Source: a virus
Virus record (IMG/VR): IMGVR_UViG_3300021168_000013
Direction: 5' to 3' (one strand)
Length of the DNA stretch: 64,000 bases
In this document: positions 59,926 through 62,186 of the stretch, one piece after another
Position numbering within the stretch: position 1 is the stretch's first letter
Layout of the letters: each line of letters starts with the position of its first letter
The notes under the pieces: generated by a model
What the model was told of the DNA's origin: nothing
Databases searched by the model: none
Seen by the model: the letters and a program-made list of their open reading frames with translations, nothing else
Made by a program: the position numbers and the translations under genes

Positions 59926-59954
59926 TTGACATTTAAATTATATTATGGTAATAT
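59926..59954 (+). promoter_or_regulatory. Sigma70-like promoter of the TnpB/Cas12-like gene
   Basis: TTGACA-17-TAATAT. Confidence 0.7.
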
Positions 59955-59966
59955 AATGTCATTGAG

Positions 59967-61673
59967 ATGAAAAAAACCAGAATTTATAAATACGCTCTAA
60001 ATCCTACTCCTTCACAGAAGGAACAATTGGAAAAATGTGGCAAAGTTTCTCGTTTTCTTTGGAATTCCTTGGTTCATCAAACGAACTTTGCATTGCGCGA
60101 AATGGATAATGGAAGGCGTTCTAATATTGAAAATGAATATAAGACTTTAATAAAATCCAAAAATTTAATTGGTCAAAGGGTGACTTTTGTGAATGCTATA
60201 GCTAAAGAAAAGCAAATATCCAAAAAAGATGCGTTGAACATATTTGTGGAAGAAAAAGCAAAAGAAGACATTGTAATATTCAAAAGAAAAAAAGCAAAAA
60301 AAGGACTACCAATTGGGAGTAGAGCAATACGTAAATCAAATAGAAAATTGGCAGGTAAATATGCTATGGAAAAAATAAATTCCAAACGTAATGCGTTAAT
60401 ATCTGGAAATCAAAAATCTGTATGGACTGGCATTCAAGCAAAATGGATTGACTTTTTAAGTAATTGGGATAGTGGGGTATGTAAATCTCCTAGAAAGAAA
60501 AAGAGATACCAGATATCGGCTATCCAAAAACAAATTCATAATGGAAAATGTGATATAGCAAAATATGTAGATTTATCATGGTGTGGATCAGCGTGTTTGG
60601 AAAAAGTAGAAGTTATAAAACACCGAGAATTTCCCATAAACTCAAAAATAAATCAAATTGCTCTCACAAAAGATAGTCAATCTCGATGGTATATATGTTG
60701 TTTTATAGAAGCCGATGAATCGGTGTTTCAACGTAAATTTACAAAAACTGGAAAAACTGTAGGTATTGATCCGGGGTTGAAAACCGCATTGACTACTTCA
60801 GACGGAAAAAAGATTACACCAGTAGGTTTATATTCACATAATGCACAGGAACGTCGTTTAAAGAAATTAAGTAGAAAATTGGATAGACAAACTAGAATTA
60901 ATAATCCAGATTGTTTTAATGAAAATGGGACATGGAAACGAGGAAAACGTATATATAATAGAACAAAAGGAATGTTAGAAACTATTATAAAAATGACTTC
61001 TATTAGAAAATATTTTGTGGATGCAAAAACCAATTATTACCATAACACGGCTATCCAATTGTTAAATCAATATGATATCATTGGGGTGGGTGATGCCAAA
61101 ATTCACACATTCATTAAAGGAGAAGGAAAAATCAAAAGAGTAAATAATTTAAAGATAAGAGAACATGCTATATCAGGATTCAAGAATATATTAAAAGATA
61201 AAGCCAAATTATCATTGACACCAAAACATATCTATGATAATATATCAGAGAAATATACCACAGTCACTTGTTCTAATTGTAATAAATTGACGGGACCTAG
61301 TGGTGAAAAAGATTTAAATATTAGAAATTGGACATGTTCAGAATGTGGTTCAAACCATGATCGTGATGTAAATGCCGCAATAAATATTAAAAATAAGACT
61401 TTAACGACTGTAGCACAAACAGTTAGTGATGGGAAACCATCAAAAGTCCGTAGCGCAACGAAGCTGTCTCGTAAGAGACAAAATGCCCGTGCTATGGAAA
61501 CCAAAAATTCGCAAGATTTTGGGCCGATGTCAATACCGTTTACGAGTGCTCAAGTGAGCAATCAGACAATCGAAGATGCTCGCATCCCAGAAAAATCTGT
61601 TACAGAACATTTTACGAAAGTATTATTATCTGTGGAAACAACTGCCCCACTCAAAAAAGTGGAGTGCTCGTAA
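59967..61673 (+). CDS. CRISPR-associated TnpB/Cas12-like RuvC nuclease with rearranged (Fanzor-type) active site
   Basis: N-terminal YKYALNPT..Q...L; RuvC-I GIDPG; RuvC-II GVGD; SEKYTT-CSNC...CSEC-HDRDVNAAINI. Confidence 0.9.
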   Translation: MKKTRIYKYALNPTPSQKEQLEKCGKVSRFLWNSLVHQTNFALREMDNGRRSNIENEYKTLIKSKNLIGQRVTFVNAIAKEKQISKKDALNIFVEEKAKEDIVIFKRKKAKKGLPIGSRAIRKSNRKLAGKYAMEKINSKRNALISGNQKSVWTGIQAKWIDFLSNWDSGVCKSPRKKKRYQISAIQKQIHNGKCDIAKYVDLSWCGSACLEKVEVIKHREFPINSKINQIALTKDSQSRWYICCFIEADESVFQRKFTKTGKTVGIDPGLKTALTTSDGKKITPVGLYSHNAQERRLKKLSRKLDRQTRINNPDCFNENGTWKRGKRIYNRTKGMLETIIKMTSIRKYFVDAKTNYYHNTAIQLLNQYDIIGVGDAKIHTFIKGEGKIKRVNNLKIREHAISGFKNILKDKAKLSLTPKHIYDNISEKYTTVTCSNCNKLTGPSGEKDLNIRNWTCSECGSNHDRDVNAAINIKNKTLTTVAQTVSDGKPSKVRSATKLSRKRQNARAMETKNSQDFGPMSIPFTSAQVSNQTIEDARIPEKSVTEHFTKVLLSVETTAPLKKVECS

Positions 61674-61717
61674 AGTCAGGTTGACGAACTTTATTATAAA
61701 CGAGTTGTGTGAAGGCT
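61407..61717 (+). ncRNA. Predicted structured scaffold RNA (omegaRNA/tracrRNA-like) overlapping the nuclease 3' end
   Basis: Five GNRA-capped hairpins and long-range helices found by eye; ends at the first repeat. Confidence 0.7.
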
Positions 61718-62109
61718 GTAACAATGACTCTAATACTTTAAGGTAATTGTGACTAAGTACCTCTTACGAGTCTCATTCATTCTAGCCGCGTAACAATGAC
61801 TCTAATACTTTAAGGTAATTGTGACTCACAACGAGATTAAGCAATAACAACAACAAATAGTAACAATGATTCTAATACTTTAAGGTAATTGTGACCAAGA
61901 TGGTTTATATTCATCAGTTGGTATCAACTTAGTAACAATGACTCTAATACTTTAAGGTAATTGTGACTACCTGTTCCTCATTCTTATTTTCGGTGATGGC
62001 ACAGTAACAATGACTCTAATACTTTAAGGTAATTGTGACCTCCAAATGATTCCAACATCATGAAATGGATGTGGTAACAATGACTCTAATACTTTAAGGC
62101 AATTGTGAC
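61718..62109 (+). CRISPR. CRISPR array: 6 x 36-nt repeats, 5 spacers (36, 34, 36, 36, 34 nt)
   Basis: GTAACAATGACTCTAATACTTTAAGGTAATTGTGAC at 61718, 61790, 61860 (1 mismatch), 61932, 62004, 62074 (1 mismatch). Confidence 0.97.
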
Positions 62110-62140
62110 ATATATTATCCTTTTAGTATTATTAATATAA

Positions 62141-62186
62141 TAACATTTTAAGGCAATTGTTATACTATTTATAAGGTGATTGTGAC
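62141..62186 (+). repeat. Two degenerate copies of the repeat 3' half
   Basis: TTTAAGGCAATTGT and TAAGGTGATTGTGAC. Confidence 0.6.

Follow-up and report, generated by a model that had tools for sequence, protein, structure and literature searches.

We found a locus combining a TnpB-family RNA-guided nuclease gene (P0001) with a short repeat-spacer array, which begins 44 nt past the stop codon, in a 64,000-nucleotide stretch of viral DNA (IMG/VR record IMGVR_UViG_3300021168_000013; "the window" denotes this whole stretch). The effector displays conserved but relocated RuvC triad residues, the tail of its open reading frame (ORF) contains a covarying scaffold RNA, a loop of this scaffold covaries with the repeat, and the association with an array is conserved in relatives. 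We consider it probable that this phage locus encodes an RNA-guided DNA nuclease system of TnpB descent that stands between the omegaRNA systems of transposons and type V CRISPR, i.e., a TranC-like or Cas12n-like candidate of the V-U type, the scaffold of which serves both as omegaRNA and as trans-activating CRISPR RNA (tracrRNA), and which cleaves DNA and is used against competitors. An earlier note, made from the sequence alone, had described this DNA as a phage mini-CRISPR system with a promoter-like site, a single 568-aa TnpB-like gene and, 44 nt later, a 6-repeat array, and this layout is confirmed in the sequence (Table 1). Its further statement that neither cas1, cas2 or cas4 nor a transposase gene lies nearby also holds, in that the ORFs between 57.1 and 64.0 kb (within about 4 kb of the locus, the remainder of the window having only been sampled) include no Cas1, Cas2, Cas4 or TnpA. 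Residence in a transposon together with a TnpA (Y1 or serine recombinase), which otherwise marks TnpBs, is hence not seen here, and the missing adaptation module is also typical of most V-U variants and of V-J and V-M (PMC10691335).

The effector is recovered as a TnpB by the NCBIfam guided_TnpB model (NF040570; 109.9 bits against a cut-off of 100), and the Pfam models for the Cas12f1-like TNB domain (PF07282; 55.7) and HTH_OrfB_IS605 (PF12323; 35.7) likewise exceed their cut-offs. An AlphaFold2 model computed with 25 relatives is confident over residues 1-484 (predicted local distance difference test (pLDDT) mostly 87-97) and falls to about 30 over residues 485-568. The best fold match of this model is ISDra2 TnpB (Z 21.4; root-mean-square deviation 3.6 over 322 residues), followed by ISFba1 TnpB (Z 20.5), the mimivirus Fanzor2 (Z 17.1), Cas12f (about Z 16) and LaTranC (Z 15.9), with Cas12m and Cas12p (about Z 15) and CasLambda (Z about 10) lower down. 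The protein is thus of the TnpB fold, with an enlarged helical REC region and a functional part of about 484 aa, and the model presents the WED-REC-RuvC-TNB arrangement characteristic of TnpB.

In the alignment of the 25-sequence family the invariant residues are G266-D268-P269-G270, G375, E428, the four cysteines of the zinc finger and R466-D467. Hidden Markov model (HMM) alignments place G375 opposite E278 of ISDra2 TnpB ('GTEHL') and the corresponding Glu of LaTranC ('AVETL'), and E428 opposite a Pro of ISDra2 TnpB situated just ahead of the zinc finger. Further afield, D268, G375, E428 and D467 are kept invariant across relatives of 26-55% identity. From these alignments we read the catalytic site as composed of D268, the relocated E428 and D467; the HMM alignments and the invariance within the family bear out what the earlier note had seen by eye, namely DPG at RuvC-I, Gly at the canonical RuvC-II position and a Glu 53 residues on. 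A site with Gly or Pro for the canonical Glu and a conserved alternative Glu downstream is the hallmark of the enzymes termed TnpB2 or RIIr. Jiang et al. (PMC10530073) reported that Fanzors and a monophyletic set of TnpBs carry Gly or Pro instead of the RuvC-II Glu and use a conserved Glu at a distance of about 45 residues, that this alternative Glu is essential in ApmFanzor by mutagenesis, that the TnpB2 enzyme TvTnpB is active with such a site, and that enzymes with the relocated-Glu site lack collateral cleavage. Altae-Tran et al. (PMC10691335) found the identical RuvC-II change in several of the large branches of TnpB, including virus-specific ones. The window effector therefore shares with the TnpB2/RIIr TnpBs (e.g., TvTnpB of Thermoplasma volcanium) and the Fanzors (e.g., ApmFanzor2, PDB 9B0L) a Gly/Pro and an alternative Glu some 45-53 residues downstream, before the zinc finger (PMC10530073, PMC10691335). 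By analogy with these enzymes, it is probably devoid of collateral cleavage. However, they are proteins of about 350-500 aa that use a single-guide omegaRNA and reside in transposons or eukaryotic elements, whereas in the window system the REC region is enlarged, an array is present and a transposase is missing.

The earlier note had taken the relocated Glu as a sign of descent from the Fanzor-related branch, an assignment that we do not uphold. Among 235 aligned database relatives of at least 300 aa, 118 have the D-G-E-D state, 49 a different S/S state and about 45 the canonical one; because the relocated-Glu site is so common in bacterial TnpBs, it does not by itself constitute a tie to Fanzors. 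Moreover, the profile comparison gives an E-value of 2.5e-27 with ISDra2 TnpB as against 1.3e-18 with ApmFanzor2, the fold is likewise nearer to the former than to Fanzor2 (see the Z-scores above), and the context is that of a bacteriophage rather than of a eukaryote or giant virus. The Gly in place of the canonical Glu also raises the alternative of an effector that only binds DNA, in the manner of Cas12m or Cas12k. We regard this as very improbable, given that D268, E428 and D467 are invariant throughout the clade of the window protein and that ApmFanzor and TvTnpB, which have a site of this kind, are catalytically active (PMC10530073).

The second line of evidence concerns the RNA encoded in the tail of the gene. 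Across nine loci, whose proteins are 43-55% identical, a stretch that begins directly past RuvC-III and takes in the whole of repeat 1 is strikingly conserved in nucleotide sequence. The RNAalifold consensus of these 9 loci has 72 pairs, 44 of which show compensatory double changes. With the pseudoknot included, 92.8% of the alignment cells are paired, versus 36-41% when the partners are slid by 1-3 columns, and double changes are seen in 47 of the 77 pairs, versus 9-19 after sliding; these values are not attained in any of 500 shuffles. The window sequence taken alone folds with a z of -5.2. At the codon level, the variability of position 3 relative to positions 1-2 is 1.01 in codons 485-568, as opposed to 1.7-1.9 in the body of the gene. 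The stop codon of the window ORF is a CAA-to-TAA change within the conserved RNA block, and the RNA sequence continues past it; in L142 (359-kb contig), a stop that comes about 200 nt sooner leaves an ORF of 508 aa and falls within the scaffold, which proceeds unchanged to the end of the contig (L142 4527-4743). Judging by this early stop, the tail peptide looks dispensable. The combination of covariation, flat codon variability, shifting stops and a disordered structural model leads us to conclude that the constraint on the tail acts at the level of RNA, not of protein.

This covarying RNA overlaps the 3′ end of the gene, which is the position expected of the guide-RNA scaffold of a TnpB. A covariance model of its 5′ third (R1) has a single match in the window and elsewhere recovers only the close family; L009, L144 and some 130 loci of generic TnpBs give none. 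The scaffold has no counterpart in Rfam, and a scan of IMG/VR with a pattern of scaffold motifs returned nothing. The 40 nt upstream of repeat 1 were also considered as a decayed "repeat 0"; this idea was dropped, since they align with the coding tail of the relatives, and we assign them to the scaffold. The earlier note had contrasted CRISPR association with the omegaRNA guidance that is normal for such proteins and favored the former. The array is indeed there, but the omegaRNA scaffold still sits inside the ORF tail, and because of this persistence we regard the locus as a hybrid of the TranC/Cas12n type and not as a clean CRISPR system.

The scaffold is further connected to the array by two predicted pairings, which correspond to the two-duplex architecture, i.e., a repeat:anti-repeat duplex and a pseudoknot next to the guide, of Cas12f and Cas12n single-guide RNAs and of TnpB omegaRNAs. 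The repeats of the close family differ among loci, nearly all ending in (T/C)TG(T/C)GA(C/G), and the loop of the first scaffold hairpin changes in step with the repeat 3′ end: the loop/repeat combination is CACAA/TTGTG in the window, CACAG/CTGTG in L001, L002 and L008, CGCAG/TTGCG in L143 and CACAACC/GGTTGTG in L004. The other duplex would form between the roughly 50 nt upstream of repeat 1 and the repeat 5′ half, for which cognate combinations average -15.3 kcal/mol and non-cognate ones -9.9 kcal/mol (permutation p = 0.0018, 6 loci). A simple search for the strongest anti-repeat duplex gave inconsistent positions and was replaced by this alignment-based analysis.

Searches of 5.8 and 1.8 billion proteins recovered a tight family of 24 proteins (P0002-P0025), 23 of which are 39-54% identical to the window protein and 450-612 aa long, the remaining one (P0025) being 30% identical; below these, scores fall sharply to generic 350-aa TnpBs. 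An exhaustive search gave 48 representatives with an E-value below 1e-30. In a FastTree phylogeny of 226 relatives, the window protein lies in nested clades of 23 (support 99), 45 (95), 65 (100) and 70 rows (82), in which nearly all members are large proteins in the D-G-E-D state (median length about 570 aa), set apart from the small TnpBs. Members of the family sit on contigs of 98, 115, 127, 190, 219, 359 and 364 kb or in IMG/VR; hence the clade is largely one of big phages, and the phage context proposed in the earlier note agrees both with this and with the phage genes in the window. A scan of metagenomes for DNA of the family yielded only generic TnpBs, the motif used being too common.

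The earlier note had made array linkage in homologs a point on which its proposal should stand or fall, and we found arrays with different repeat sequences in 8 of the 11 evaluable loci of the clade (Table 1), two further loci (L141 and L142) being cut by contig ends and left out of this count. Together with the six repeats of the window, this gives the conserved linkage between a RuvC effector and a repeat-spacer array by which type V systems are recognized. Many contigs of the family (L141, L142, L143 and those of P0002 and P0131) end a few to a few hundred nucleotides past the gene. Assemblers break contigs at repeat arrays. Given that these contigs end right after the gene, as they would at such arrays, the frequency of arrays in the family may be underestimated.

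The relatives also differ in the form of their guides. In L004 (43% identity, 115-kb contig) only GTGGTTGTGAC is repeated. This minimal guide handle, which is too short to fold alone, matches the loop sequence GCACAACC of the scaffold; because these 11-13-nt repeats cannot self-fold and keep only the pseudoknot partner, we argue that the scaffold acts in trans there. In L005 (55% identity), TGTTGTGAC occurs twice at the stop codon (L005 5790-5815) and is followed by unique DNA, which is the layout of a single-guide omegaRNA, and L146 (about 30% identity; 4250-5100) has no array. The effector of L147 has GINPA at RuvC-I and no Asp at RuvC-III and retains the Gly and the relocated Glu; from its sequence, it is probably a nuclease-dead, binding-only offshoot.

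We posit the following mechanism. One transcript, initiated at the promoter at 59926 or at an internal one, would yield the scaffold. When fused to the first repeat and spacer, it would constitute an omegaRNA-like single guide, and in trans it would act as the tracrRNA for the remaining repeat-spacer units, with the loop pairing with the repeat 3′ end and the segment upstream of repeat 1 pairing with the repeat 5′ half. The resulting ribonucleoprotein would cut DNA that matches the 34-36-nt spacers beside a target-adjacent or protospacer-adjacent motif. As there are no adaptation genes, the array would be short, with its turnover probably occurring by recombination. The most likely use by the phage would be against competing mobile elements or phages, as has been proposed for other type V systems of phages.

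Certain observations weigh against this scheme. The anti-repeat pairing is weak in the AT-rich window (-10.6) and in L001; in the single-sequence fold of the window, the partner of the loop is a TTGTG immediately ahead of repeat 1 and not the repeat; and the 36-nt repeats can form a hairpin by themselves (-5 to -13 kcal/mol), in which the same 3′ end takes part. Three of the 11 evaluable relatives (L005, L144 and L146) are without an array. Lastly, no protospacer was found for any spacer in phage records, IMG/VR or the loci of relatives: with the complete array as the blastn query, 50,697 phage records (INPHARED) returned chance matches only, exact 20-mers of spacers 1, 3, 4 and 5 had no match in IMG/VR, and the spacers of every array, compared with the window and all relative loci, matched only by chance, over 12-17 nt. 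The use against competitors or host genes put forward in the earlier note therefore gains no backing from a protospacer.

Because the 36-nt repeats also fold alone, we weighed a tracr-independent type V system, in which each repeat would be its own hairpin handle (as in Cas12a, Cas12j or CasLambda) and the tail RNA would serve only the first guide or else the stability or regulation of the mRNA. The pairing of the 5′ end of the repeat with its 3′ end, which covaries between loci, and the weak anti-repeat of the window are in line with such a system. However, the handles of L004 cannot form a hairpin, the scaffold loop covaries with the repeat 3′ end, and a 315-nt RNA with 47 compensatory pairs ends exactly at repeat 1, and on this account we deem tracr independence quite unlikely. 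Another alternative is that of a selfish, homing-type TnpB element, in which nuclease and omegaRNA maintain or spread the element between related phages and the "array" is a by-product of tandem duplication at its right end. Such an element would fit the fully kept omegaRNA layout, the single guide position or lack of an array in L005 and L146, the last decayed repeat adjoining flanking DNA in an omegaRNA-like manner, the absence of adaptation genes and spacer matches, and the occurrence of the locus in different neighborhoods in related phages. It is nonetheless unlikely, in that the surrounding 4 kb or so contain neither a TnpA nor another recombinase, the window has just one copy of the scaffold, and arrays with unique spacers of CRISPR-like length recur, with different repeats, in relatives of 26-55% identity.

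The reading of the locus as an intermediate between omegaRNA and CRISPR guidance is further informed by comparison with known type V systems. Nesting within a described Cas12 subtype, the outcome that would have spoken against the earlier note, was not observed with any model that we could test: the window protein scores 49.1 bits with the V-U2 (C2c8) model NF038192 (cut-off 350); 67-94 bits, a generic level, with the PADLOC Cas12f, Cas12u4 and Cas12u2 models (Cas12u4 at 78.8, below the generic Cas12f/TnpB models); 29.7 bits with RdCas12n (phmmer E-value 2.9e-6); and 40-43 bits with LaTranC. On these sequence comparisons no Cas12 subtype model matches among those tested, with V-U6-45 and the TranC clades other than LaTranC lying outside the comparison. 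The N-terminal 261 aa have no tblastn match in the 50,697 phage records.

The closest parallels are nevertheless evident in organization. Cas12n (V-N, formerly V-U4; RdCas12n, PDB 9J09) likewise has a small effector resembling TnpB whose C-terminal tail is disordered, along with a tracrRNA that shares its DNA with the 3′ end of the ORF and an array downstream, and it lacks adaptation genes (PMC12216341). The window locus has this disordered tail and in-ORF tracrRNA-like scaffold, but not the family-level similarity, nor the canonical RuvC-II Glu of the Cas12n triad (D287/E386/D484), in place of which it has Gly375 and E428; moreover, Cas12n is bacterial with a tracrRNA of 170 nt, whereas the window family is found on jumbo-phage contigs with a scaffold of about 315 nt. 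The TranC intermediates (e.g., LaTranC, PDB 9JFO/9JFQ, and the phage CauTranC9; Jin et al., Cell 2025, as cited in bioRxiv 10.64898/2026.03.27.714800) share with the window system a TnpB-like effector and an omegaRNA-derived scaffold functionally split into a tracr part and array-borne guides, and also have short arrays with 32-38-nt repeats and some phage-borne members. LaTranC, which is only a weak match, keeps the canonical Glu (AVETL) where the window protein has Gly375. CasPhi (Cas12j) and CasLambda (Cas12l) are also single RuvC effectors accompanied by mini-arrays in huge phages without Cas1 or Cas2, but they are effectors of 700-800 aa that are tracr-independent, have a canonical RuvC site and are only distant structural matches to the window protein.

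The kind of system described here, a phage-borne intermediate between TnpB and type V with the tracrRNA inside the ORF, is accordingly already known, and the 2025 CRISPR classification (PMC12669027) states that TnpB-array associations arose about 50 times, with more expected. In the literature searched we found no description of an array-linked effector with the relocated Glu. What is new, at the level of a variant, is the combination with a TnpB2/RIIr active site, the large phage clade, and the coexistence of single-guide, minimal-handle, full-repeat and nuclease-dead forms in one clade. More tentatively, and with the balance leaning somewhat against it, the clade as a whole (a minimum of 70 clusters at 50% identity, with a median length of about 570 aa, mainly in large phages) could represent a type V lineage not yet classified and the first family of effectors linked to CRISPR arrays to have a relocated RuvC-II Glu. 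It would hence probably lack collateral cleavage, and it would hold every stage from omegaRNA to CRISPR, i.e., single-guide forms, 11-13-nt handles, arrays of 36-nt repeats and a nuclease-dead, array-bearing offshoot.

Table 1. Features of the nuclease locus in the window, and arrays found in related loci
Feature	Position	Strand	Basis or remark
Promoter-like TTGACA-17-TAATAT with extended TG, 13 nt upstream of the ATG	59926..59954	+	Consensus match only
TnpB-family RNA-guided nuclease gene P0001, ATG start, 568 aa	59967..61673	+	ORF and family models
RuvC-I Asp268 (GIDPG)	60768..60770	+	Invariant, alignments A1 and A2
Gly375 at the canonical RuvC-II Glu position (IIGVGD)	61089..61091	+	Invariant
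Second promoter-like TTGACA-17-TAATAT (TG), inside the ORF, ~160 nt upstream of the scaffold	61215..61243	+	Consensus match only
Glu428, relocated RuvC-II glutamate (ISEKYTT), 53 residues past G375	61248..61250	+	Invariant
CxxC...CxxC zinc finger of the TNB domain (C435, C438, C457, C460)	61269..61346	+	PF07282; all Cys invariant in A1
RuvC-III Asp467 (DRDVNAA)	61365..61367	+	R466-D467 invariant
OmegaRNA/tracrRNA-like scaffold, ~315 nt: 13 nested helices (61404-61685) and candidate anti-repeat	61404..61717	+	Covariation
Hairpin loop CACAA, pairs with TTGTG at the repeat 3′ end (pseudoknot, R:AR-2)	61414..61418	+	Helix 2, 100% paired, covariation
Codons 485-568, disordered C-terminal tail, no sign of protein-level selection	61419..61670	+	pLDDT about 30; codon variability
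Candidate anti-repeat, pairs with the repeat 5′ half (R:AR-1)	61687..61711	+	Cognate-pairing test
Array of six 36-nt direct repeats and five spacers	61718..62109	+	Repeat search
Repeat starts	61718, 61790, 61860, 61932, 62004, 62074	+	Spacing start-to-start 70-72 nt
Spacers, 34-36 nt	61754-61789, 61826-61859, 61896-61931, 61968-62003, 62040-62073	+	
Two decayed partial repeats (3′ halves), within 62141..62186	62147-62163, 62170-62186	+	
L001 array, 4 repeats of 36 nt	Directly after gene		
L002/L003 array, 2 repeats	Directly after gene		
L008 array, 2 repeats	Directly after gene		
L143 array, 2 repeats, then contig end	Directly after gene		
L009 array, 3 repeats	Directly after gene		32% identity
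L147 array, 15 repeats	Directly after gene		26% identity; 44-kb viral contig; locus at 2306-5502
L004 array, 11 units with a period of 47-48 nt, only GTGGTTGTGAC (11-13 nt) repeated	L004 5696-6162		43% identity; 115-kb contig

Within the window, the repeat 3′ half occurs in 9 copies, as against 0.4 expected, with 8 of the 9 inside the array block; the ninth (6590-6606, minus strand, 3 mismatches) seems to be a chance occurrence. The final decayed repeat ends in TTGTGAC at 62186 and adjoins the next gene. Promoter-like sites of the type listed in Table 1 number 27 in this AT-rich DNA, against 16.9 expected; going by its sequence, the one inside the ORF may be a separate promoter for a scaffold/array transcript.

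The window is phage DNA of 33% G+C coding for a family B DNA polymerase, a helicase, glycosyltransferases, a CCA-adding enzyme, YopX, Pth2 and an HNH endonuclease. The nearest isolate by DNA polymerase is Microcystis phage Mel-JY01, at only 35% identity. A tRNA with the anticodon CUA (an amber suppressor; 58857-58931), which ARAGORN reports as tRNA-Pyl and which scores 59.5 bits with the Rfam tRNA model, lies just upstream of the Pth2 gene; the nuclease ORF ends in TAA and has no in-frame TAG. In the vicinity of the nuclease locus and the suppressor tRNA are the genes for the CCA-adding enzyme (53132-54718), Pth2 (58976-59308) and a 2′-5′ RNA ligase/LigT-like protein (62649-63176), which together look like an RNA/tRNA repair gene set. 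Elsewhere, seven consecutive ORFs of 267-295 aa on the minus strand (2880-8695), arranged back to back or with 4-nt overlaps, look like a tandem paralogous gene family.

The key step in the passage from transposon to CRISPR guidance is the splitting of the omegaRNA into a tracrRNA and a CRISPR RNA, which has been studied in few lineages. The present clade offers a natural series for it, running from no array through minimal handles and full repeats to a dead nuclease, with the scaffold still inside the ORF. It also combines guidance by an array with the relocated-Glu site, which in the Fanzors and TnpB2 enzymes accompanies cleavage of the target without collateral activity, and the functional core of about 484 aa makes the window effector a candidate compact editor. 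For phage biology, the locus adds to the evidence that large phages have repeatedly armed themselves with TnpB-derived guided nucleases.

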